DNA of 64,000 bases from the NCBI GenBank assembly GCA_026396065.1, contig JAPLXO010000008.1:1056-65055 (forward strand). Direction: 5' to 3'. Origin of the DNA: Candidatus Nomurabacteria bacterium (GTDB lineage: Bacteria > Patescibacteriota > Minisyncoccia > Phycocordibacterales > UBA9973). This document shows, in pieces, positions 52,018 to 63,935 of the stretch (position 1 is the first letter of the stretch; each line of letters begins with the position of its first letter). The notes under the pieces were generated by a model, which ran no database searches, had not been told where the DNA came from, and was given only the letters and a program-made list of their open reading frames with translations. Position numbers and translations under genes: made by a program.

Positions 52018-52524
52018 ATGGAAAATAACTATGCCTTTATAGATGGTCAAAACCTGTATCTAGGAACACAAGCAGAGAATTTTGATTTAGATCTAGCTCG
52101 CTTTAGGATTTACTTAAAAGAGAAATATAAAGTAAGCGTAGCTTATTATTTTTTAGGTTGTATATTTGATGCAAATACAGAATTGTATGATGAAATACAG
52201 AAAGCTGGTTTTGTCCTAAAATTTAGAGAACATAATTCAAATATGATAGGCAATAAAAAGGGTAATGTCGATACGGATGTTGTTTTTGAAATGATGCGTA
52301 GTTTGATAAATGAAAACCAAATGTCTAAAATAGTTCTAGTGTCTGGTGATGGTGATTATAAAAAAGTTGTTGACTATTTGATTAAAAAAGATAAATTTTT
52401 AAAAATACTTTTTCCTAACAATCGCTACTCTTCTTTGTATAAAGAAATCACTGTAAAATATTTTGATAAATTGTGTGATGAACACGTAAGATCAAAAATT
52501 GAGCAAAAGAAAAAGCGAACTTAG
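52018..52524 (+). CDS. NYN domain protein (LabA-like PIN-fold nuclease family)
   Basis: AFIDGQNLYLG N-terminus and VLVSGDGDYKKVVDYL motif. Confidence 0.7.
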   Translation: MENNYAFIDGQNLYLGTQAENFDLDLARFRIYLKEKYKVSVAYYFLGCIFDANTELYDEIQKAGFVLKFREHNSNMIGNKKGNVDTDVVFEMMRSLINENQMSKIVLVSGDGDYKKVVDYLIKKDKFLKILFPNNRYSSLYKEITVKYFDKLCDEHVRSKIEQKKKRT

Positions 52525-52673
52525 GGATCGCCCCGTTCGCTTGCTTTTTCGTTGTTATAAATACATTATATACTGATGAACACGTAAGATCAAAAATTGA
52601 GCAAAAGAAAAAGCGAACTTAGGGATCGCCCCGTTCGCTTGCTTTTTCGTTGTTATAAATACATTATATACTG
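52478..52673 (+). repeat. perfect 98-bp tandem duplication (3' end of NYN gene + terminator)
   Basis: 52478-52575 and 52576-52673 are identical; each contains the hairpin aaagcgaac..gttcgcttgcttttt. Confidence 0.8.
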
Positions 52674-52798
52674 TTTACATTTGTAAGTAAAGTCAACTAT
52701 TTGTGAAAATAGTATTTGAGGTTATTTAATATTGAAAAATCCTTAAAAATAAGGTCAAATTTTGAAATTTCCTTAAAATGTGCTATAATTGTGAGGTT

Positions 52799-55180
52799 AT
52801 GGATAAAAAATCCCTTACAGAACAAGATATTTGTTCAAAATACGTTCTACCAGCAATTCTCGATTCAGGATGGGATTTACATACTCAAATACGTGAACAA
52901 TGGACATTCACTTCCGGCAGAATTATGGTTCATGGAAAAACTATTTCTCGCGGTGATAAAAAGCGTGCTGATTTTATTTTATATTACAAAAACAATTTCC
53001 CAATAGCTGTCGTTGAAGCAAAAGATAATACACATTCTGCTGGAGCAGGTCTCGAACAAGCAAAACAATATGCAGAAATTTTAAATATTCCATTTGCGTA
53101 TAGTACCAATGGTGATGAATTTGTAGAATATGATTTTTTAATTGGTACAGAAAAAACTTTTCCATTAAATGAATTTCCAGATCGAGAAGAATTAATGCGT
53201 CGTTTCTCAGAATCAAAAGATTACAATCAAGAACAAAAAGAAGTAATTCTTCAAGATTATTTTATAGATCCTTCAGGTAAGGGGCCTCGTTATTATCAAG
53301 AAAATGCTATAAACAAAGTTGTCGAAGCTGTAGCCAAAGGAAAAGATAGACTTCTTTTAGTAATGGCAACCGGAACAGGAAAGACATATACAGCATTTCA
53401 GATAATTTACAGACTTTGGAAATCAAAGAAAAAGAAAAGAATTTTATTTCTCGTAGATCGTACAGCTTTGGCTCAACAGACAATGCAAGGTGACTTTCGT
53501 CATTTTGGTGGAGCGATGACTCGTATTAAAAATGGTACAGTAGATAAAGCATATGAGATTTATGTTGCTTTATATCAAGGTCTCACTGGTGGTAGTAATT
53601 CTGAAAATGATATAGAAGCTGAAGAAGAAAAGAAAAAACTCTTTCAAGAATTTTCTCCTAATTTTTTTGATCTTATTGTTGTAGACGAGTGTCATCGTGG
53701 TAGTAGTAATGAAAATAGTGCATGGAGAGAAATTTTGAATCACTATACTAGTGCAACACAGATTGGTATGACTGCTACACCAAAAGAAACCACCGATATG
53801 AGTACTGAGGAATACTTTGGTAAGTCTGTATATACATATTCATTAAAACAAGGTATTGATGATGGATTCCTTGCACCATATAAGGTTATTCGTTATAGAT
53901 TCAATAACGACGAATGGCGTCCGATAGAAGGTTTTCGTGACGTAAATGGAGAAATTGTTCCTGATGAGATTTATACCGAAGGTATGTTTGACCGTACTAT
54001 CATTATAGATGAACGTAATAGAGCAGTAGCAAAATGTATTGCAGATTTTATGAGAGATACTGATGTGTATCAGAAAACAATTGTTTTCTGTGTTGATATC
54101 GCACATGCAGAGCGTATGCGTACTTGTTTGACGAATGAATTAAAAGAACAAACAAAAGAAAATTCTAGATTTATAGTAAAGATAACAGGGGATGATACTT
54201 TTGGAAAAATGGAAATTGAAAATTTTATTAATCCCGAATCTCGATATCCAGTTATCGCGACGACTTCAAAGCTTCTTTCTACTGGAGTTGATACAAAGAC
54301 AGTTAAACTCATTGTCCTTGATTCACCTATGAATTCAATGACAGAATTCAAGCAAATCATTGGTCGTGGTACACGTGTCGAAGAGCAATACGGAAAATAT
54401 TATTTTACTATTATGGATTTTAGAAATGTTACTCGTCTTTTTGCTGACAAAGATTTCGATGGTGATCCTGTGAAAGTCTATGATGTTGATGGAAAAGATC
54501 CTGTTGATATTGAGAGCTTGATGAACGAAGAAACAAGGTCTGAAGAAATGATAAAAGAATTAGATCCGTTGGCTGAAGTTTTGATTGATGGTACTCAAAC
54601 AGAAGAAAAACCAAAAAAGATTCGTATCAAAGACGGAGTTGATTTTTATCCTATTCATCAAGAAGTAAAATATATCGATCCGAAGACAGGTAAACTCATT
54701 ACTGAATCATTAAAAGATTTTTCAAAGAAAACAATTATTTCTGAGTATGCATCTATTGATGAATTTCTGACTCGTTGGAAAGAAATAGAAAGAAAAGACA
54801 TCATCGTAAATGAATTACTCGATCGCGGTGTTGCTTTTGAAGAGCTTCGTAAAGAATCCGGTAAAGACCTCGATGTGTTTGATTTGATTTTACATGTTGC
54901 CTATGGCAAGAAGCCGATGACTCGTAGTGAAAGAGTTAAAAAAGTTCACGCAAATGATTATTTTGGAAAATATGAAGGCAAAGCAAGGGAAATAATAGAC
55001 TTATTACTTACAAAATATACAGACCAAGGTATTACTGCTATTGATGGTATTGAAGATTTGATGGTTTCTCCATTTACCGACTATGGTACTCCTATAGAAA
55101 TAGTTGAGGATATTTTTGGAGGTAGAGAATCCTATATGGAAGTTATCAAAAACATAGAAAATAGTTTATACTCAGATTAA
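52799..55180 (+). CDS. hsdR: type I restriction enzyme R subunit
   Basis: N-terminal HsdR nuclease region, helicase motifs VMATGTGKTYTA and VVDECHRG (DEAH), motif VI QIIGRGTR. Confidence 0.85.
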   Translation: MDKKSLTEQDICSKYVLPAILDSGWDLHTQIREQWTFTSGRIMVHGKTISRGDKKRADFILYYKNNFPIAVVEAKDNTHSAGAGLEQAKQYAEILNIPFAYSTNGDEFVEYDFLIGTEKTFPLNEFPDREELMRRFSESKDYNQEQKEVILQDYFIDPSGKGPRYYQENAINKVVEAVAKGKDRLLLVMATGTGKTYTAFQIIYRLWKSKKKKRILFLVDRTALAQQTMQGDFRHFGGAMTRIKNGTVDKAYEIYVALYQGLTGGSNSENDIEAEEEKKKLFQEFSPNFFDLIVVDECHRGSSNENSAWREILNHYTSATQIGMTATPKETTDMSTEEYFGKSVYTYSLKQGIDDGFLAPYKVIRYRFNNDEWRPIEGFRDVNGEIVPDEIYTEGMFDRTIIIDERNRAVAKCIADFMRDTDVYQKTIVFCVDIAHAERMRTCLTNELKEQTKENSRFIVKITGDDTFGKMEIENFINPESRYPVIATTSKLLSTGVDTKTVKLIVLDSPMNSMTEFKQIIGRGTRVEEQYGKYYFTIMDFRNVTRLFADKDFDGDPVKVYDVDGKDPVDIESLMNEETRSEEMIKELDPLAEVLIDGTQTEEKPKKIRIKDGVDFYPIHQEVKYIDPKTGKLITESLKDFSKKTIISEYASIDEFLTRWKEIERKDIIVNELLDRGVAFEELRKESGKDLDVFDLILHVAYGKKPMTRSERVKKVHANDYFGKYEGKAREIIDLLLTKYTDQGITAIDGIEDLMVSPFTDYGTPIEIVEDIFGGRESYMEVIKNIENSLYSD

Positions 55181-55183
55181 TAT

Positions 55184-56605
55184 ATGTCATCCCAAATTCA
55201 ATCAATCATAAAAAATATTCAAGATGAAATGCGCAAAGACGCAGGGCTCGATGGTGATGCACAACGTATCTCACAGCTTGTATGGATGCTATTCTTGAAA
55301 ATTTTTGATGACCGTGAAAAGAACTTGGAACTCATTGATCCAAAATATGTTTCTCCAATTCCTGAAAAATTCCGTTATCGTAATTGGGCTGTTGATGATG
55401 AAGGCATCACTGGCCAAGATCTTGCAGACTTCATCGATAAAGAGCTTTTCCCTGCACTCAAAAATCTTTCCATTTCCGATACTGATACTCGTGGATTCTT
55501 GATAAAGAATATCTTTACTGATACGTATAACTATATGAAGAATGGTACGCTCATTCGTAAAGTTTTTAATAAAATAAATGAAATAAATTTCAATAAAAAA
55601 GACGACCGTCATGCATTCGGAGATTTGTATGAAAAGATTTTGAAAGATCTTCAAAATGCTGGAAATGCAGGGGAGTTCTATACACCACGCCCACTGACGA
55701 AATTCGTGGTAGATATGGTCGATCCAAAGTTTGGTGATACAATCCTCGATCCTGCATGTGGCACAGGAGGATTCCTCGTCAATGCACTCGAGCATATGCG
55801 TGCTGGTGTAAAAACTGCAAATGATGAAAAGAAACTACATTCATTCGTAAACGGTGTAGAGCTCAAACCACTTCCACACATGCTCGCTATTACAAATATG
55901 ATTCTCCATGGAGTTGAAGACCCCTCTACTATTCTTCGTGGCGATATGCTTTCTCGTCCATATACTGATTATGGTCCGAAAGATCGCGTCGATGTTATTC
56001 TTGCAAATCCACCTTTCGGGGGTACTGTTACTGATGGCACAGAATTAAATTTCCCATCACAATTCCGCACAAAAAGTACTGCAGAATTATTTCTTGTTTT
56101 ATTTGTTCACTTATTAAAAGATGGCGGTAGGGCTGGTATAGTTTTACCCGATGGGTCTTTATTTGGTGATGGAGTTATTGCAAAGGTTAGAGAATATCTT
56201 ATGACTGAATGTAACCTTCACACTATTGTCCGTCTTCCTCCGGGAGTTTTCAATCCATATGCAGGAGTAAATACAAACTTACTCTTTTTCACTAAAGGTG
56301 AGCCTACAAAAGAAGTTTGGTATTACCAGATGAAGCTTCCAGCTGGACTTCGTGCTTATACAAAGACCAAGCCTATTACAGATGCAGAATTTGATACAGT
56401 CAAAGAATGGTGGAAAAATCGTGCCGATTTTTCCACCGACAACGCATGGTGTGTTTCCATCGAAGACATAAAAGCTAAAAATTGGAATTTGGACTTCAAG
56501 AATCCAAAGGGTGGGGAAGTAGAGGAAGAATTCGGGTCGAAAGAATTGGTTGAGAGAATTTTTGGAAAAGAAGAGGAAATTAAAAAGATTTTGAAGAATA
56601 TATAA
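55184..56605 (+). CDS. hsdM: type I restriction-modification N6-adenine DNA methyltransferase subunit
   Basis: HsdM N-terminal domain, motif I DPACGTGGFL, motif IV ILANPPFGG. Confidence 0.85.
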   Translation: MSSQIQSIIKNIQDEMRKDAGLDGDAQRISQLVWMLFLKIFDDREKNLELIDPKYVSPIPEKFRYRNWAVDDEGITGQDLADFIDKELFPALKNLSISDTDTRGFLIKNIFTDTYNYMKNGTLIRKVFNKINEINFNKKDDRHAFGDLYEKILKDLQNAGNAGEFYTPRPLTKFVVDMVDPKFGDTILDPACGTGGFLVNALEHMRAGVKTANDEKKLHSFVNGVELKPLPHMLAITNMILHGVEDPSTILRGDMLSRPYTDYGPKDRVDVILANPPFGGTVTDGTELNFPSQFRTKSTAELFLVLFVHLLKDGGRAGIVLPDGSLFGDGVIAKVREYLMTECNLHTIVRLPPGVFNPYAGVNTNLLFFTKGEPTKEVWYYQMKLPAGLRAYTKTKPITDAEFDTVKEWWKNRADFSTDNAWCVSIEDIKAKNWNLDFKNPKGGEVEEEFGSKELVERIFGKEEEIKKILKNI

Positions 56606-56606
56606 T

Positions 56607-57062
56607 ATGGATGAGCAAATCATTAAAATTAAAACAATAATGACAGAAGTTTCTACTGGAGTTGCTAGAATTCAAGAGATGAATGACACTTATAAAGTTT
56701 TATATAAAGAAATTGCTAGTTATTGCAAAGAATATAGTATCAAAAATACTAACCCGTATTCTGATTTATGGGAATTTTATAGTTATTGGTCAAAAAAACT
56801 TCCTAAATATTCTGATAGAAGATCATATATTATTGAGTTATATAAAAAATTTGGTTTAGGAAAAGAACAAAAGAAGAATTTACGAATTACTACATTTTAT
56901 GTAAATAAAGATAGGATTAAAGAAATACAAAAAATTAAATCTTTGTCCTTTGATTTCAAAAAATTATCAAAACTTTGTGAAGAAATAAATATTTTGGGTA
57001 TAAAAATTTTTCAGATGTATGTGCACAATATGGTAAAAAAAGTTTTAAAGAAGTATCATTAA
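56607..57062 (+). CDS. hypothetical protein embedded in type I RM operon (gene A)
   Basis: 151-aa ORF starting 1 nt after hsdM stop; no motif recognised. Confidence 0.5.
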   Translation: MDEQIIKIKTIMTEVSTGVARIQEMNDTYKVLYKEIASYCKEYSIKNTNPYSDLWEFYSYWSKKLPKYSDRRSYIIELYKKFGLGKEQKKNLRITTFYVNKDRIKEIQKIKSLSFDFKKLSKLCEEINILGIKIFQMYVHNMVKKVLKKYH

Positions 57063-57208: not shown

Positions 57209-58726
57209 ATGAAAGAAAATGAAGCAAAAATACACTTTTCAGATTTTTTTAAGGTAAGTCATGATTTAGTTGAGAATTATGGTGCTCTTGATATATCACT
57301 TCTATCAGATAATCCTGCTTTCGTGGATCCATTTTTAATTTTCTATAGTAAAAAAAGTGAATACGAAGTGTTGCATAAGCAGATTATTGAATATATTTTT
57401 TTCTTAAAAAGAAATAGTGATAATGGTAATTATTTAGAAACTAATTATAAATTTCCAGAAGTTAGCCAAACATGGTTAGGATATTCAAGACATGGAAATA
57501 AAGGGAGAGGTCTTGGTCCGAAGTTTGCTAAAGAGTTAGATAAAAATTTGACGGAAATATTTTTTGAATTACAAGATAGTAAAATTACTAAAAGTCCACA
57601 TTTAGAAAAACTTTGTCTAGTTGCTAAGGGTGTTGGGGTTGATAATATTAGTGATTTTACACTTAATCTTGTTAAAGGTTATTTAATTAAATATACAAAA
57701 AATTTTTGTAAGGAAAATGTCAATCCTAAATTTTTAAACGATTTTGGTATTTCTAGAATTGAATTTGATTTTGAAAAAGGAATTTGGATTGATGGAGTGG
57801 CAAGTTTGCCATTCATTTATAATGAAAAAGGATTGAAAGAATACGTATTATTAACTCCTAAGGATATTTTAGTAAAAGAAGAAGATTGGATTTCAAAAAG
57901 CGATTTTCTTAAACATGACAGTGTTATTTTAAATAGAATTGATAATCAGGATTTAAGAGATAAAATTAATCAATATTTTAATGCATTGATTCCAGTTAAA
58001 ATAAACAAAAAAGGTAAAAAAGTTCCGGATAATTCTCAAAAAAATAGAAAAGAAGCGTTAATAGAAACTGCTAAAAAATATACAATATTATTAGAGTATT
58101 ATATACGATATAAAGAAAATGAAGGATCTCCTGTTGTTAAAAGAAACTTAGAGGATGTTTCTTTGATTAAAGATATTTTTTACTCAGAAGCAAGAAAAAT
58201 TGTGTCTGAATTAAAAAATGACACAGAATTTTATAAAAAACCACTTTCTTCACTCGAAGAAAGTATCAAGAAAATAAAGATATTTAAACATTATCTAGAG
58301 GACAGGAATAACTGTAGAATCTTTTGGGATGGTGAAAAGTTAAAAAAAATAAAAGAAGATGATATTGGAATATTATTAGATCTTATTTTTAACGAATCTT
58401 TGTTTTCTGTCGATAATCAAGTAAATAATGGCAGAGGTCCTTCTGATGTAAAAGTTTCAATGGGTAGAAAAGATTGTACTATTATTGAAATAAAACTTGC
58501 GTCAAATCCGCAAATGCCTAAAAATCTAAAAAATCAATTAGATATTTATAAAAAAGCTAACGATACTTACAATGGTGTCTATCTCATTGTATATTTTACA
58601 AATGATGAAAAAGTTAAGATGGAAATTTTATTAAAAAAGTTAAATATGTTTATATATATTGATAAATATATATTTCTTATTGATTGTCGAAAAAAGATTT
58701 CTGCATCTAAAGTAAATGAACTATGA
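57209..58726 (+). CDS. hypothetical protein embedded in type I RM operon (gene B), C-terminal PD-(D/E)xK-like motif
   Basis: 505-aa ORF; C-terminal region has hydrophobic-D (IGILLDLIF) then TIIEIKLAS (ExK). Its stop overlaps the hsdS start (ATGA). Confidence 0.5.
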   Translation: MKENEAKIHFSDFFKVSHDLVENYGALDISLLSDNPAFVDPFLIFYSKKSEYEVLHKQIIEYIFFLKRNSDNGNYLETNYKFPEVSQTWLGYSRHGNKGRGLGPKFAKELDKNLTEIFFELQDSKITKSPHLEKLCLVAKGVGVDNISDFTLNLVKGYLIKYTKNFCKENVNPKFLNDFGISRIEFDFEKGIWIDGVASLPFIYNEKGLKEYVLLTPKDILVKEEDWISKSDFLKHDSVILNRIDNQDLRDKINQYFNALIPVKINKKGKKVPDNSQKNRKEALIETAKKYTILLEYYIRYKENEGSPVVKRNLEDVSLIKDIFYSEARKIVSELKNDTEFYKKPLSSLEESIKKIKIFKHYLEDRNNCRIFWDGEKLKKIKEDDIGILLDLIFNESLFSVDNQVNNGRGPSDVKVSMGRKDCTIIEIKLASNPQMPKNLKNQLDIYKKANDTYNGVYLIVYFTNDEKVKMEILLKKLNMFIYIDKYIFLIDCRKKISASKVNEL

Positions 58727-59910
58727 AAACTAATTGGCAAACAAAAAAACTAAGTGAAGTTTGTACTATTGTTGGTGGTGGTACACCAAAAACTGGAATT
58801 TTCGAATATTGGGATGGTGATTTATGTTGGGTAACTCCCAAAGATCTTGGAAGACTTGATGGTTTTGAAATTTCGGAAACAGAAAGAAAAATTTCTGAAA
58901 TAGGACTTAAAAATTCTTCAGCACAAAAATTACCAATTGGTTCAGTAATTCTTTCTTCTCGTGCACCAATTGGTTATGTTGTTATTAATACAGTACCAAT
59001 GGCAACAAATCAAGGTTGTCGTAGTTTTGTTTGTGGTGCTTATATTTTTAATAAATATTTATATTATTTTCTTATTTCAAATACAGAGTTATTAAATTCA
59101 TTAGGTAGTGGCTCAACATTTTTAGAGGTTTCTGGTTCAAGGTTAAAAGAAATTGAAATTCCACTCCCATCACTCGAAACTCAAAAGAAAATCGTGGAGA
59201 TTTTGGATGAGAAATTTGCAAAGATTCGTGAAGCGAAAAGTTTACGTGAACAATCCATCACCGACACAGAAAAAATCCTTTCCCAAACTCTTCGTGAAAT
59301 TTTTGAAGAGGGTAAAGAAAAAGGATGGGAAGAAGATATTTTAAATAATGTTGCTGCAAAAGTTGCAGATGGTACACATGATACACCAAAATATCAATCA
59401 AAAGGTTTTCCTCTAATCACTTCAAAAAATCTTCTAGAATCTGGTCTAGATTTTTCTAATATAAAGTATATTTCTGAAGAAGATTATATTCAGATTAAAC
59501 AAAGATCAGGAGTAAATAAAGGAGACTTGCTTATTGCAATGATTGGAACTATTGGAAATATAACGAGAGTAGAAACAGAACAAAAATTTAGTATTAAAAA
59601 TGTTGGACTTATTAAACCAGATGAAGATAAGGTTTTAGGTAAATATATAATGTATTTTTTACATAATTCTAGATTGATGTCTTTGATAGAAAGTAAGGGT
59701 GCTACACAGAAATTTATTGCACTTGGACCAATTAGAAATATAAAAATTAAATTTCCATCACTTACAGAACAGAAGAAAATTGTAGAAAGATTAGATGCAC
59801 TTTCAGAAAAAATTCGACAAATGGTAGATTTGCAAAAATCACAACTTGAAGATTTTAAAAAATTAGAAAAATCATATCTCCGCGAAGCCTTCAACGGGGA
59901 ATTGATATAA
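58723..59910 (+). CDS. hsdS: type I restriction-modification specificity subunit
   Basis: Two target-recognition domains separated and followed by the conserved repeats IPLPSLETQKKIVEILDEKFAKI and IKFPSLTEQKKIVERLDALSEKI. Confidence 0.85.
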   Translation: MKTNWQTKKLSEVCTIVGGGTPKTGIFEYWDGDLCWVTPKDLGRLDGFEISETERKISEIGLKNSSAQKLPIGSVILSSRAPIGYVVINTVPMATNQGCRSFVCGAYIFNKYLYYFLISNTELLNSLGSGSTFLEVSGSRLKEIEIPLPSLETQKKIVEILDEKFAKIREAKSLREQSITDTEKILSQTLREIFEEGKEKGWEEDILNNVAAKVADGTHDTPKYQSKGFPLITSKNLLESGLDFSNIKYISEEDYIQIKQRSGVNKGDLLIAMIGTIGNITRVETEQKFSIKNVGLIKPDEDKVLGKYIMYFLHNSRLMSLIESKGATQKFIALGPIRNIKIKFPSLTEQKKIVERLDALSEKIRQMVDLQKSQLEDFKKLEKSYLREAFNGELI

Positions 59911-59942
59911 CATCCTTACATACTGGAGTTTGTCAGTATGAC
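59911..59942 (+). repeat. hairpin repeat H1 (degenerate copy of gtcatccttacaaac-tggag-gtttgtaaggatgac family)
   Basis: catccttacatactggagtttgtcagtatgac immediately after hsdS stop. Confidence 0.7.
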
Positions 59943-59953
59943 AAAATAATTAA

Positions 59954-60067
59954 ATGAACAAATACGAACAAAAGGCGGAGGTGGAGATTGATCTGCATGG
60001 GCATACGATGCCCGAGGCGGGGGGAGGTCTTGGATATTTTATTATATTTACCCATTCGTACGAATAG
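59954..60067 (+). pseudogene. truncated smr 5' fragment (copy S1)
   Basis: Encodes MNKYEQKAEVEIDLHGHTMPEAG then diverges to GGLGYFIIFTHSYE-stop. The first 24 codons are homologous to the intact smr at 62675. Confidence 0.6.
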
Positions 60068-60077
60068 GTAAATAAAC

Positions 60078-60111
60078 GTCATCCTTACAAACTGGAGTTT
60101 GTAAGGATGAC
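60078..60111 (+). repeat. hairpin repeat H2 (perfect 15-bp stem)
   Basis: gtcatccttacaaac tgga gtttgtaaggatgac. Confidence 0.8.
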
Positions 60112-60167
60112 GGAATGTTTAATGTAAGGAAATTTTAATACTAATTTTGTAGGAATTGTTACGAAGT

Positions 60168-60197
60168 CCAGCGACTTTAGTATACTAAAGTCGCTGG
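60168..60197 (+). repeat. second palindromic element P (copy 1)
   Basis: ccagcgactttagtatactaaagtcgctgg; identical element at ~61624-61655. Part of a ~250-bp repeat unit (59954-60203 vs 61424-61664). Confidence 0.7.
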
Positions 60198-60251
60198 GCA
60201 GGAAAGTGTCAATATTTAAATTAAAAGTTTTCCATAGTTGATAGTGAACAA

Positions 60252-61292
60252 ATGTTCACATATAATATAAGTATGAAGAAAGTAATTAAAAAAATACAAA
60301 AGAATACAAAAAACGACTTAGTCATTTATCAAGCAAAGTCAGGGGCTATTGAGTTCCGTGGTGATTTTAATAAGGAGACTATTTGGGCTACACAGGCGCA
60401 AATCGCTGAGATTTTCGGTGTTAATTCACAAGCGATAACAAAACATATAACTAATATTTATAAAGAAAAAGAACTTAGTCAAAAGGCAACTTGTTCCAAA
60501 ATGGAACAAGTTCGAATGGAAGGTAACAGACAAATTAAAAGAAATTTAGATATATATAACTTAGATATTGTTATTGCAGTTGGATATAGAATTAATTCAA
60601 AAATTGCCACTCAATTTCGTATCTGGGCTACAAAGACTCTTCGTGAGCATATTGTAAAAGGTTATACCGTAAACGAAAAGAGATTGCTTCAAGTTACAGA
60701 TAAATTCAGAGAATTACAAAATACTGTTTTGTTCTTGCAGGAAAAATCTCAGAAAGAATTACTTTCAGGCCAAGAAAACGAAGTTTTGAATTTACTCGCA
60801 TCTTATGCAAAGACTCTCACTATCCTCGATGAATATGACAAGGGAGATTTAAAACAAGTCAAAGGAGAAAAAGCAAAATTTATTTTAACTTATGAAAAAT
60901 CCATAGAGATACTCGTCGAAGTTAAAAAAGAATTGATGGCAAAAGGCGAAGCAGGAGAACTTTTTGGAAATGAACGCGATGGATCTTTTGATGGAATAAT
61001 AAAAGGCTTGTATCAGACATTTGGTGGTAAAGAATTATATGCAACGCTTGAAACTAAAGCAGCGCATTTACTGTACCTCATCATCAAAGATCATCCGCTT
61101 TCAGATGGTAACAAGCGTACAGCGTCTTTCCTGTTTGTATATTTCTTGGACAAGAATAATGCACTTTATAGAAAAAATGGAGAAAAGAAAATAAACGACA
61201 ACGCGCTCGCTGCGCTCGCGCTCCTCATTGCCGAAAGTAATCCAAATGAAAAGGATATTATGGTGGCTCTTATAACGCAGTTATTAAATTAA
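60252..61292 (+). CDS. RhuM-family N-terminal domain fused to Doc/Fic-family toxin domain
   Basis: N-terminal RhuM-like blocks (IEFRGDFNKETIWATQAQIAEIFGV, IVIAVGYRINSKIATQFRIWATK); C-terminal Doc-type motif HPLSDGNKRTA. Confidence 0.7.
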   Translation: MFTYNISMKKVIKKIQKNTKNDLVIYQAKSGAIEFRGDFNKETIWATQAQIAEIFGVNSQAITKHITNIYKEKELSQKATCSKMEQVRMEGNRQIKRNLDIYNLDIVIAVGYRINSKIATQFRIWATKTLREHIVKGYTVNEKRLLQVTDKFRELQNTVLFLQEKSQKELLSGQENEVLNLLASYAKTLTILDEYDKGDLKQVKGEKAKFILTYEKSIEILVEVKKELMAKGEAGELFGNERDGSFDGIIKGLYQTFGGKELYATLETKAAHLLYLIIKDHPLSDGNKRTASFLFVYFLDKNNALYRKNGEKKINDNALAALALLIAESNPNEKDIMVALITQLLN

Positions 61293-61384
61293 TGCCAAAC
61301 AAATACGAACAAAAAGCCGAAATAGAAATAGATTTACATGGATATACGATGCTCGAGGCGGGGAATATTTCAGATTATAAATAG
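61292..61384 (+). pseudogene. truncated smr 5' fragment (copy S2), ATG overlapping the Doc gene stop (TAATG)
   Basis: MPNKYEQKAEIEIDLHGYTMLEAG identical to the intact Smr N-terminus, then NISDYK-stop. Confidence 0.6.
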
Positions 61385-61417
61385 TCATACTTACATACTG
61401 GAGTTTGTAAGTATGAT
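61384..61417 (+). repeat. hairpin repeat H3
   Basis: gtcatacttacatac tggag tttgtaagtatgat (one mismatch in stem). Confidence 0.7.
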
Positions 61418-61423
61418 AAAAAA

Positions 61424-61541
61424 TATGCCAAACAAATACGAACAAAAGGCCGAAATAGAAATAGATTTACATGGATATACAATGCTTGAGGCGGGGGGAG
61501 GTCTTGGATATTTTATTATATTTACCCATTCGTACGAATAG
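61424..61541 (+). pseudogene. truncated smr 5' fragment (copy S3)
   Basis: MPNKYEQKAEIEIDLHGYTMLEAGGGLGYFIIFTHSYE-stop; same divergent tail as S1. Followed by the half-hairpin gtcatccttacaaac (H4, right arm deleted). Confidence 0.6.
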
Positions 61542-61777
61542 GTAAATAAACGTCATCCTTACAAACACGGAATGTTTAATATAAGGAAAATTTTAATACA
61601 GGTTTTGTAGGAATTGTTACGAAGCCCAGCGACTTTAGTATACTAAAGTCGCTGGGCAGGAAAGGTTTTATTCTAATTTTACTTGTTTTAAAGTCCAAAA
61701 GCGTGAAAAAGGCTACTTTTTAGCATATTTTCACGCTTTTGTTGACAAAACAGTGAAAAAGACTATAATTAGTATAT

Positions 61778-62668
61778 ATGGCAAAAATACCAGCAGTATT
61801 TAATAAAATTAACTCTCTTAGGGAGAGATATTACAAAGCTTCTACTGGTAAAGAAGCGCTTATTAATCTTGTCAGTGAAGCCGAAGTCGCTGAACAAGTG
61901 TATAACTCAAATGCTATTGAAAATAGCACTCTAACACTCGAGGAAACAGAAAAAATTCTTTTGCAAATTGATCTCGATAGATATATCAACGAGCGCGAGA
62001 TTTTTGAAGCTAAAAATCTCGCGCGAGTGGTGTCATATATCGAAAAACGTTCGAAAGAACAAGATCTAACTCTCGAAGTAATATTGTCACTTCATAAAAT
62101 GTTGATTTCAAATATTCGCGATGATATCGCAGGTAGATTTCGAAAAGATAAAGAATTTGTACGAGTAGGTAGTCATATTGCTCCTTCTCCACAAGAAATA
62201 CTTGAGAGACTAGAGAACATGCTTGCAGAATACAATGCAAATAGCCACGAAAGTATTGTGAAGCGTATTGCGCGACTACATCTAGTATTTGAGCATACTC
62301 ATCCATTTGTCGATGGTAATGGACGTATCGGACGTGTATTAAACAATTATCTTTTAATTCGTGAAGGATTTGTCCCTATCAATATTAAATTTATAGATCG
62401 TAAGAAATATTATAATGCGTTTAAAGAATTTGATGAAAAAGGAAAAACAAAAATAATGGAAGAAATTGTCGCTAAAGCTTTGACCAATAGTTATCACAAA
62501 CGTTTAGCGTATTTAGAAAATAAAAAAATTGTTACATTAGTAGAATATGCAAAATCTAATAAGATTTCTCATTCAAATCTTATTAACAAAGCTACTCGTC
62601 AAACAATTGATGCTTTTTTAGAAAAAGGTATTTGGAAAATTGGTATTGAATATAATAAGACTAAATAA
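61778..62668 (+). CDS. Fic family protein (adenylyltransferase-type)
   Basis: Canonical Fic motif HPFVDGNGRIGR. Confidence 0.85.
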   Translation: MAKIPAVFNKINSLRERYYKASTGKEALINLVSEAEVAEQVYNSNAIENSTLTLEETEKILLQIDLDRYINEREIFEAKNLARVVSYIEKRSKEQDLTLEVILSLHKMLISNIRDDIAGRFRKDKEFVRVGSHIAPSPQEILERLENMLAEYNANSHESIVKRIARLHLVFEHTHPFVDGNGRIGRVLNNYLLIREGFVPINIKFIDRKKYYNAFKEFDEKGKTKIMEEIVAKALTNSYHKRLAYLENKKIVTLVEYAKSNKISHSNLINKATRQTIDAFLEKGIWKIGIEYNKTK

Positions 62669-62674
62669 AATCTA

Positions 62675-62941
62675 ATGCCAAACAAATACGAACAAAAAGC
62701 CGAAATAGAAATAGATTTACACGGATACACGATGCTTGAGGCGGGGAGTGTTTTAGACGATTTATTTCGTGAAGCAAAGTACAAACATGTCAGAATAATT
62801 ACAGGCAAAGGCAAGAATAGCGAGAATGGTCCCGTCTTGCCGAACTTTGTGCGAAACTATTTGAATTCCCGCGGGGTGCATTACAATCAATCCAAACTTC
62901 AATCCGGCGGCGAAGGCGCACTCGAGGTTTTTCTCCGTTAA
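62675..62941 (+). CDS. Smr domain protein (intact copy)
   Basis: 88 aa: IDLHGYTMLEA, VRIITGKGKNS, GGEGALEVFL Smr-domain blocks. Confidence 0.75.
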   Translation: MPNKYEQKAEIEIDLHGYTMLEAGSVLDDLFREAKYKHVRIITGKGKNSENGPVLPNFVRNYLNSRGVHYNQSKLQSGGEGALEVFLR

Positions 62942-62971
62942 AATTCTCTCCACCCCCCCCTCACTTTCGAC

Positions 62972-63010
62972 TTATCCACATACCAACATACTGGAGTTTG
63001 TAAGGATGAC
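62972..63010 (+). repeat. hairpin repeat H5 (degenerate left arm)
   Basis: atccacataccaacatactggagtttgtaaggatgac. Confidence 0.6.
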
Positions 63011-63317
63011 GTTTTGTAATATGACTATGGCAAAAATAAAAACAGCAAAACAAATGGAGCGACATTTGAAAGGCATGTCAAACCATCATCGTATCGAGAT
63101 TTTATTATTAGTGGGGAAGCAAAGTGGAATTACACTCGATCAGATTATCGGGTTACTCAACGCGAATCCGAAAACAATAGGTGAGCATACACGCCGACTG
63201 CATAATGCTGGTTTAATAAATAAAAAATACAAAGGCAAATTTGTACAACATTCATTATCTCCATACGGAAAAACTTTTTATAATTTTCTCAAAGCATTTC
63301 AAAACCTCACTCAATAA
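63006..63317 (+). CDS. ArsR/SmtB-like winged-helix transcriptional regulator (true start possibly MAKIK)
   Basis: HRIEILLLV...ITLDQIIGLL...TIGEHTRRLHNAGLI helix-turn-helix pattern. Confidence 0.55.
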   Translation: MTFCNMTMAKIKTAKQMERHLKGMSNHHRIEILLLVGKQSGITLDQIIGLLNANPKTIGEHTRRLHNAGLINKKYKGKFVQHSLSPYGKTFYNFLKAFQNLTQ

Positions 63318-63328
63318 TTTAAATACAT

Positions 63329-63362
63329 GTCATCCTTACATACTGGAGTTTGTAAGGATGAC
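63329..63362 (+). repeat. hairpin repeat H6
   Basis: gtcatccttacatac tggag tttgtaaggatgac. Confidence 0.8.
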
Positions 63363-63395
63363 AATATACATTTTTATATGTGGTATACTTAACCC

Positions 63396-63935
63396 ATGAT
63401 AAAAACTACACTTGTGTTCGTTTCGGTTATCGCTCTTTTTGCGGTAGGCTCTTTGGTTATTTCTCACAACAAAACTGTTGTTGTACAGAAACCGGTTATT
63501 ACCAACTTTGAAGAATGTGTCAGAGATGGTCGTCCTATCATGGAGACATATCCTCGTCAGTGTCGTGATGATAGTGGTCATGTATTTACTGAAGTTGTAG
63601 TATCGCCAGTGACTCCACCAGTATCAGATGTTCAAAATTTTAGTACAGAATATTTATTGAATATCGATGGACATATTACGTTGCCTGATGGGCTCACTGT
63701 TACATTGAAAAAAGTAAATGATTCACGTTGTCCAAAAGGTGTCACGTGTGTTTGGGCAGGAGAACTCGCACCAGTGTTGTCGGTAATGGGTGGATATTTT
63801 GGCACTGCGGTTCAAGAAGTAATTATTGGTACAGTCAGAAATCAAAGTGATACAACTGGTGGATATACATTTGCTATTCGATCTGCGACAATAGAAAGCG
63901 CAAACATTGTAGTATATAGAGGTGTTTCAAATTAG
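63396..63935 (+). CDS. hypothetical secreted/membrane-anchored protein
   Basis: N-terminal TM/signal; Cys-containing extracytoplasmic domain. Confidence 0.5.
   Translation: MIKTTLVFVSVIALFAVGSLVISHNKTVVVQKPVITNFEECVRDGRPIMETYPRQCRDDSGHVFTEVVVSPVTPPVSDVQNFSTEYLLNIDGHITLPDGLTVTLKKVNDSRCPKGVTCVWAGELAPVLSVMGGYFGTAVQEVIIGTVRNQSDTTGGYTFAIRSATIESANIVVYRGVSN

Follow-up and report, generated by a model that had tools for sequence, protein, structure and literature searches.

A DUF8370 protein with a predicted PD-(D/E)xK nuclease domain in a type I restriction-modification operon of Candidatus Nomurabacteria: a candidate single-chain sensor-effector defence nuclease

The gene described here, referred to as gene B, lies on the plus strand at positions 57209–58726 (stop codon included) of a 64,000-nucleotide stretch of contig JAPLXO010000008.1 from a Candidatus Nomurabacteria bacterium (assembly GCA_026396065.1); this stretch is called the window, and all coordinates refer to it. 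According to the list of open reading frames (ORFs) and their translations, gene B starts with ATG and encodes a protein of 505 amino acids, with coordinates, strand and start codon as given in a preliminary description made from the sequence alone. The protein is best explained as a single-chain sensor-effector anti-phage defence nuclease, in which a highly conserved N-terminal domain, Pfam DUF8370 (PF28123), would control a C-terminal PD-(D/E)xK nuclease, and we consider this explanation probable. A role in defence as such is likely, and the sensor-effector logic is favoured to the same degree as the explanation as a whole. The gene B protein is 100% identical to an NCBI entry named "hypothetical protein" from a Candidatus Nomurabacteria metagenome-assembled genome, and a homologue search returned more than 2,300 relatives whose length varies very little (about 490–505 amino acids), indicating that gene B is a real and intact gene.

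The C-terminal nuclease domain

The C-terminal domain comprises residues 373–505 (58325–58723, plus strand), corresponds to the C-terminal portion of Pfam DUF8371 (PF28130), and is very probably a PD-(D/E)xK nuclease. An AlphaFold2 model of the protein was built on an alignment of gene B and its relatives (52 sequences, to which all conservation counts out of 52 refer) and has a mean pLDDT of 83.4, with secondary structure assigned by DSSP. Between residues 383 and 462 the model consists of an α-helix (383–396), three β-strands (400–403, 414–418, and 422–430), a second α-helix (436–450), and a further β-strand (455–462), which in the model is the canonical restriction-endonuclease core. The residues E383, D413, E427, K429, and Q443 are invariant in 52/52 sequences. 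E383 is the glutamate of the first helix (codon 58355–58357, read directly). D413 is the last residue of the GRGPSD motif (residues 408–413, 58430–58447), is positioned at the start of the second strand (414–418), and is the predicted catalytic Asp of the "PD" motif. The (D/E)xK motif is provided by E427-I-K429 (58487–58495) in the strand formed by residues 422–430, and the distance of 14 residues from D413 to E427 is usual for PD...(D/E)xK. In the helix after the ExK strand, Q443 is accompanied by Y447 (51/52) in a Q443-x-x-x-Y447 arrangement (58535–58549), which we take to resemble the QxxxY motif of RecB and Cas4. Also conserved are N439, S417, and a C-terminal tail with the pattern D492-x-R-x-K-x-S-A-S.

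The preliminary description had quoted the strings IGILLDLIF, GPSD, and TIIEIKLAS, which are present at residues 386–394, 410–413, and 424–432, respectively, and had interpreted the first as a hydrophobic strand ending in Asp that is followed 37 residues later by the ExK motif, with GPSD in between. The ExK part of this assignment is borne out by the invariance of E427-x-K429, and the Asp part has to be revised. The Asp in question, D391 (58379–58381), is found within helix 383–396 of the model rather than in a strand, 36 residues before E427, and its alignment column contains 24 Lys, 13 Asp, 13 Arg, and one Gly. The helical location and the lack of conservation rule out D391 as the catalytic Asp, and this role is instead assigned to D413, the Asp of the intervening GPSD. 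Shuffling this Lys/Glu-rich protein produces a loose "hydrophobic-D ... hydrophobic-[DE]xK" pattern in 46% of cases, and the pattern is not significant by itself; of the six [DE]xK sites in the protein, E427-x-K429 alone is conserved in every sequence, and it is the conservation that makes the motif real.

When the whole model was compared with the PDB using Foldseek, all matches of meaningful probability were PD-(D/E)xK nucleases, namely EndoMS/NucS (the best, with a probability of 0.92), SfsA, Can2, Cdn1, and PspGI. Comparison with the predicted viral structures in BFVD resulted in dozens of matches over approximately 110–135 columns with probabilities of 0.97–1.00, and these are named restriction endonuclease, type IV Mrr domain protein, or PD-(D/E)XK nuclease; an example is A0A6M3HZX7 (TMt 0.57, root mean square deviation of 4.3 Å, 119 columns). 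PDDEXK_9 (PF08011) is matched by 10/52 family members (best E 3.7e-5), and the gene B protein itself remains below the Pfam thresholds for both PDDEXK_9 and Mrr_cat (PF04471), so that by sequence the kinship with these families appears to be at the superfamily level only. Sequence-profile searches of the PDB with the gene B family and with the sister family described below gave nothing meaningful. Taken together, the core fold seen in the model and the catalytic residues seen in the alignment place the gene B nuclease in the PD-(D/E)xK superfamily. Structure prediction had been named beforehand as the test on which the proposed C-terminal restriction-endonuclease fold could fail, and the fold was found to be present; the canonical core, the Foldseek matches, and the PDDEXK_9 matches of the relatives all uphold the proposal. 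The assignment of a nuclease is in itself ordinary, and what recommends the family as a good candidate for a new immune sensor module is its N-terminal domain, with the size and conservation of this domain and the repertoire of effectors associated with it.

The DUF8370 domain and its interchangeable effectors

The N-terminal domain, the proposed sensor or switch, spans residues 1–305 (57209–58123) and is connected to the nuclease domain by a helical linker (residues 306–372, 58124–58324) that forms two long helices (306–338 and 348–364) in the model. PF28123 and PF28130 are assigned by precomputed database annotation, for the identical protein as well as for every homologue listed; they are recent Pfam families with the label "unknown function", and both are present in the gene B protein. 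The N-terminal 380 residues had initially been described as featureless, which does not hold, as the N-terminal domain corresponds to DUF8370 and is the most conserved part of the protein, with 27% of its columns at least 90% conserved compared with 21% for the nuclease domain and 3% for the linker. Residues D34, F38, D40, E84, D145, S148, D149, N153, Y162, T163, W193, and P217 are invariant across the gene B family and its sister family, and G91, S93, G99, G101, G103, E133, and P292 are nearly invariant across both. The Gly-rich loop at residues 89–103 (WLGYSxxGNxGxGLG, 57473–57517), in which each of the listed loop residues is at least 90% conserved, is the segment modelled with the lowest confidence and is probably flexible. 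This loop may be involved in phosphate or ligand binding, and the invariant acidic/Ser/Asn constellation (D34, D40, E84, D145, S148, D149, and N153) together with the loop would be more in keeping with a metal or ligand site than with a DNA-binding surface. A model of residues 1–372 alone (pLDDT 87.8, pTM 0.86) showed no credible fold match in the PDB by Foldseek, with the best match having an E-value of 1.6 and a probability of 0.12.

To which C-terminal domains DUF8370 is joined was read from a search of 1.84 billion cluster representatives with a profile of DUF8370 only. The profile matched 3,017 proteins at E ≤ 1e-3 and 2,060 at E ≤ 1e-10, with DUF8370 being N-terminal in every case. The majority of the matched proteins are 475–505 amino acids long, and most DUF8370 proteins end in a nuclease of the gene B type or in the Mrr-like version of the sister family. 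Among the best 150 matches, 17 are long proteins (548–1144 amino acids) whose C-terminal extensions were counted and grouped by us as TIR (7), CHAT (4), caspase (2, with EAD7 in 2), SIR2 (1), PNP/phosphorylase (1), and SEFIR (1). Each representative was aligned to both nuclease-bearing families, and the residues at the positions of D413, E427, and K429 were read. Of the 96 representatives of standard length (430–530 amino acids), 74 have an intact D-E-K triad, compared with 2/17 of the long ones (Fisher p = 4e-7), and the triad is retained in none of the 15 long proteins that have an identifiable foreign effector, whereas the DUF8370 invariants are retained in all effector-swapped proteins. 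A TIR fusion annotated as DUF8370 with TIR_2 is encoded by a clean ORF in a complete genome of 7.4 Mb (AP024152.1), and one caspase fusion is annotated as DUF8370 with a faint DUF8371, Peptidase_C14, and EAD7.

The mutual displacement of restriction endonuclease, TIR, SIR2, PNPase, caspase, and effector-associated domains is the signature of effector slots in counter-invader and conflict systems (Kaur et al. 2021, PMC8195603). The effector swapping observed here suggests that the gene B nuclease is an effector and that DUF8370 is the constant module that determines when the effector acts. The presence of the same N-terminal domain on TIR, SIR2, caspase/CHAT, and PNP, in proteins with a decayed nuclease motif, also lends support to the earlier suggestion that the N terminus of gene B could be a sensor or regulatory domain. 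More tentatively, and with slightly less than even confidence, we propose that DUF8370 represents a new, non-STAND class of immune sensor or switch with an invariant acidic, metal-site-like pocket and a Gly loop, possibly for the binding or processing of a nucleotide-type ligand, that gene B would be its nuclease-bearing form, and that it controls interchangeable C-terminal effectors (restriction endonuclease, TIR, SIR2, caspase/CHAT, and PNP) in approximately 3,000 clusters from nearly all bacterial phyla, including Patescibacteria.

The sister family, for which a Bacillus mycoides plasmid protein was used as the representative, comprises more than 4,000 proteins of approximately 482 amino acids with DUF8370 as the sole Pfam domain. 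Comparison of gene B with the sister family by hhalign resulted in probabilities of 98.7–99.5, with homology over residues 17–431 at 99.5, and the shared stretch extends into the beginning of the nuclease domain, with GRGPxD opposite GRKRID and ExK opposite ECK in the alignment. Since the sister family is homologous over this stretch but carries DUF8370 only, DUF8370 is equated with the N-terminal domain (approximately residues 1–305) and DUF8371 with gene B's own version of the remainder. Some sister-family proteins have the automatic UniRef name [quoted passage not shown], and the matches of the sister family to Mrr_cat are weak (best 0.027).

The B. mycoides protein is a true member of the PADLOC family PDC-M36A (E 1.9e-44, 150 bits), and the same profile matches residues 12–253 of gene B (E = 2.1e-17, 61 bits) through profile positions 10–241 of 457. 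PDC-M36 is a "guilt-by-embedding" candidate from a supplementary table and is defined as a three-gene cassette, FAM_01399>>FAM_00303>>FAM_00303 (Payne et al. 2024, bioRxiv 10.1101/2024.01.29.577857). It has in common with gene B the DUF8370 N-terminal domain and the C-terminal PD-(D/E)xK nuclease (GRKRID...ECK in the sister family), and both are found embedded in systems of the restriction-modification (R-M), BREX, or DISARM type. In contrast to PDC-M36, gene B matches half of the profile, carries DUF8371, which is absent from the sister family, and has no conserved partner. The cassette is not found at gene B, where one neighbour, orf151 (see below), has no PADLOC match and the other is hsdS, and in 79 loci no neighbour besides hsd genes recurs. 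The half-profile match and the absence of the cassette rule out gene B as a member of PDC-M36.

A different arrangement was observed on the Acinetobacter schindleri plasmid p3AsACE (locus L082, 4992–6760), where a DUF8370-only protein of 304 amino acids (PDC-M36A E 1.4e-21) is followed by ORFs of 82 and 172 amino acids. The 172-amino acid product has weak matches to membrane-protein families only, and the locus adjoins MazF and ImmA/IrrE-HTH genes. This locus is possibly a split system with the effector as a separate small protein.

Genomic context, proposed mechanism, and alternatives

Gene B lies inside the operon of a type I R-M system, which the preliminary description had not recorded. 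The system is complete, with intact hsdR (restriction subunit, 800 amino acids, 52778–55180; ResIII 5.6e-43, EcoEI_R_C 1.4e-27, and HSDR_N_2), hsdM (methyltransferase, 473 amino acids, 55184–56605; N6_Mtase 2.8e-68 and HsdM_N), and hsdS (specificity subunit, 395 amino acids, 58723–59910; Methylase_S 6.1e-45 in two stretches) on the same plus strand. The stop codon of gene B overlaps the start codon of hsdS (ATGA; CTATGAAA), and gene B does not encode one of the Hsd subunits. In another Patescibacteria genome, a relative with 78% identity has the order hsdR-hsdM-geneB-hsdS with 4-nucleotide overlaps on both sides of gene B.

The neighbourhoods of 78 loci from species-representative genomes covering most bacterial phyla were surveyed. 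The only recurrent neighbours are hsdS (17 loci), hsdM (13 loci), and hsdR (12 loci). At least one hsd gene is found within four ORFs in 19/78 loci, on the same strand in nearly all of these and often with a 4-nucleotide overlap. The gene B homologues occupy at least four different positions in hsd operons, and on a neighbour-joining tree the R-M association requires at least 11 state changes (gains or losses). At loci lacking R-M genes the neighbours include integrases, resolvases, DNA methylases, OLD/Gabija-type ATPases, MADS components, HNH, SLATT, and a type II endonuclease, and a Tn3 transposase is also found among the neighbours. No partner gene is conserved across the surveyed loci. A classical type II R-M system with a cognate methylase is rejected, as no methyltransferase neighbour is conserved.

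A search of 185,579 species genomes gave at least 529 matches with a patchy, accessory distribution and approximately 40% identity across unrelated phyla. Plasmid-borne relatives exist, ten IMG/VR contigs, of temperate-phage or satellite type, carry relatives flanked by genes for integrase, terminase, capsid, tail, and Psu-like proteins, and two PHROG families with unassigned function include relatives, whereas tblastn of gene B against the INPHARED phages gave no match. The behaviour of gene B is thus that of an accessory gene that is autonomous, moves horizontally, and has been repeatedly recruited into type I R-M operons. On two of the IMG/VR contigs (L094:5956–7484 and L095:4937–6194) the homologue is present as two ORFs, of 259 and 215 amino acids and of 213 and 202 amino acids, respectively, which may be decayed copies or a split variant.

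In the mechanism that we propose, gene B would be co-transcribed and translationally coupled within the operon hsdR-hsdM-[frameshifted ORF]-geneB-hsdS and would form a second, independent layer of defence rather than a subunit of the type I R-M system. DUF8370 would sense an infection-associated cue or serve as a ligand-dependent switch, and the signal would be relayed through the poorly conserved two-helix linker, possibly by oligomerization. The Mrr/PDDEXK_9-like nuclease would then cut DNA, leading either to direct restriction of the phage or to killing of the infected cell. Among the principal sources of new biology and new tools are single-protein sensor-effector immune systems, of which the majority of those known use switches of the STAND/NLR or ABC type. 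Avs and NLR-like STAND proteins, as well as Shedu, a nuclease with variable N-terminal domains, follow the same single-chain logic of a constant module with a swappable restriction endonuclease, TIR, SIR2, caspase, or PNP domain, and like the gene B family they are stand-alone genes in defence islands and prophages. The gene B protein differs from all of these in that the constant module is an unrelated N-terminal domain of approximately 300 amino acids and the effector is C-terminal. Pfam and PADLOC searches of the gene B protein revealed no P-loop or STAND NTPase, no repeat sensor, and no DUF4263, the domain of Shedu.

An alternative that we regard as improbable is that gene B encodes a type IV-like or solitary restriction enzyme in which DUF8370 reads DNA, for example modified phage DNA, and the nuclease cuts it, covering phages that escape the type I system. 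Mrr and other type IV enzymes, together with PDDEXK_9 proteins, share with gene B the catalytic fold, the motif order E...(P)D...ExK, the lack of a conserved cognate methyltransferase neighbour, as would be expected for a type IV enzyme, and the type I R-M neighbourhood, and the automatic naming of the sister family as type IV Mrr points in the same direction. Type IV enzymes commonly adjoin type I R-M loci, as in the hsd-mrr-mcrBC region of E. coli, and the position of gene B beside such a locus is consistent with this. The long β-hairpin that carries the invariant W193 could contact DNA. However, the same N-terminal domain is found on TIR, SIR2, caspase/CHAT, and PNP effectors, which act on no bound DNA site and in which the nuclease motif is decayed; such fusions are easier to reconcile with a sensor that signals than with a domain that targets DNA, although the cue sensed could itself be DNA. 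The N-terminal domain also differs from the Mrr winged helix and lacks a relative of solved structure, library scans and the DUF8370 fold search revealed no known modified-base reader or winged-helix domain in gene B, and the invariant residues of DUF8370 are mostly acidic, which is atypical for a DNA-binding surface.

We consider it distinctly unlikely that gene B is a PrrC-like guard, which would be held inactive by HsdM, HsdS, or HsdR and set free to act as a nuclease upon attack of the R-M enzyme by a phage anti-restriction protein. PrrC and RloC, like gene B, are nuclease genes inserted among hsd genes and co-transcribed with them. The tight translational coupling to hsd genes here and at 10 or more other loci, the preservation of the hsdM-geneB-hsdS order among Patescibacteria relatives of 55–80% identity, and the repeated recurrence of the type I R-M association would be accounted for by such a role. 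Against it, approximately three-quarters of the sampled loci have no nearby hsd genes, so that the protein must be able to work alone, the position in the operon varies, and the highly conserved N-terminal domain cannot co-evolve with the very variable HsdS. Gene B has no similarity to PrrC or RloC; it lacks an ABC-ATPase or anticodon-nuclease motif, with no ATPase or PrrC match in Pfam, NCBIfam, or PADLOC, and most of its relatives, unlike PrrC and RloC, are not embedded in R-M systems. A nuclease without a defence role, acting in NucS/EndoMS-like repair, recombination, or homing and transposition, would agree with EndoMS/NucS as the best PDB fold match and with the integrases, resolvases, and Tn3 transposase among the neighbours, but is very improbable given the patchy accessory distribution on plasmids and prophages, the approximately 40% identity across unrelated phyla, the lack of a conserved recombinase or repair partner, and the swapping of TIR, SIR2, and caspase domains, which is not a trait of repair or transposition enzymes.

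Several observations weigh against gene B being a sensor-effector defence nuclease. The acidic, enzyme-like invariant site of DUF8370 and its very high conservation across phyla are unusual for a sensor of fast-evolving phage proteins, and DUF8370 could instead be an enzyme or bind a universal ligand rather than being a sensor of the usual kind. The scoring of the triad in the long relatives depends on automated alignment, and 22/96 of the standard-length representatives were scored as non-canonical, reflecting either misalignment or true decay. The E-values of the PDB Foldseek matches are weak (0.06–1), which is attributed to the small size of the domain inside a large multi-domain query. The gene B protein had no Pfam-A match at E ≤ 10 in a copy of Pfam that does not contain the PF28123 and PF28130 models, and some of the neighbours at loci lacking R-M genes are housekeeping genes. 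A literature search found no experimental study of the gene B family or of PDC-M36. Likewise, no mention of DUF8370, DUF8371 (PF28123 and PF28130), or PDC-M36 was found in the article texts searched, and a search of NCBIfam gave no match for the gene B protein.

The gene B family is large and spans phyla. Its constant module is without a known relative in fold but is combined with effectors in the interchangeable manner that marks an immune sensor. If the proposed function is correct, DUF8370 would be a new sensing module for bacterial innate immunity, a function would be provided for two Pfam DUFs and a PADLOC candidate, and the repeated presence of this gene as a passenger in type I R-M operons would be explained. 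The small genomes of Patescibacteria (the Candidate Phyla Radiation) carry few known defence systems, and gene B would be among the few defence functions assigned in this group. Culturable representatives exist in Paenibacillus, including P. thailandensis, in Sinorhizobium, where the copy is on a plasmid, and, for the sister family, in Bacillus (WP_235713411), making the proposal directly testable.

The operon and the 3' part of the window

The second gene embedded in the operon, orf151, lies between hsdM and gene B at 56607–57062 on the plus strand and encodes 151 amino acids. Frame analysis showed that its coding sequence extends, in the +2 frame, as far as 57207, a single base-triplet ahead of the ATG of gene B, and that a single frameshift in the A/T homopolymer region near 56985–57010 would restore a gene of approximately 199 amino acids. 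It is probably a frameshifted gene, with the sequence pointing to either a pseudogene or an assembly error. Searches of Pfam, NCBIfam, PADLOC, and PHROG-type collections gave no family match for orf151. As a partner of gene B it is rejected, having no family match, being absent from the 78%-identical locus and from 80 genome loci, and appearing frameshifted.

The base composition of the operon shows no sign of a recent foreign island, a promoter scan of the operon showed no enrichment of promoter-like sites, and a terminator scan found no strong plus-strand terminator within it. The best plus-strand sigma-70-like site, at 52762–52789, is TTGAAA-16-TATAAT with a TG extension (11/12) and overlaps the annotated hsdR ATG at 52778, and the true start of hsdR may be the next in-frame ATG, at 52799.

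Further genes of defence or toxin type are located on either side of the operon. A gene with RhuM and Fic domains at 60252–61292 matches PADLOC PDC-S23 (E 7.6e-122), a second Fic/DOC gene is found at 61778–62668, and a gene for an NYN-domain nuclease is found at 52018–52524. With these genes, the 3' part of the window resembles a small defence island in a Patescibacteria genome. Downstream of hsdS (59900–63400), an 85-nucleotide segment is present in four copies that are 66–93% identical, at 59949, 61290, 61423, and 62673. The segment corresponds to the 5' end of a small gene (MPNKYEQKAEIEIDLHGYTMLEAG...), the full ORF of which is present in the last copy only (62675–62941). A 43-nucleotide element containing the palindrome GTCATCCTTACAAACTGGAGTTTGTAAGGATGAC is present in six copies, at 59900, 60069, 61375, 61543, 62968, and 63320. 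The two repeats bracket both the RhuM-Fic gene and the second Fic gene, and the array looks like the result of repeated insertion of toxin-type cassettes into one target or like an array related to integrons or miniature inverted-repeat transposable elements. On the other side of the operon, immediately upstream of hsdR, an exact 98-nucleotide tandem duplication (52476–52671) comprises the 3' end of the NYN-domain gene and a hairpin.

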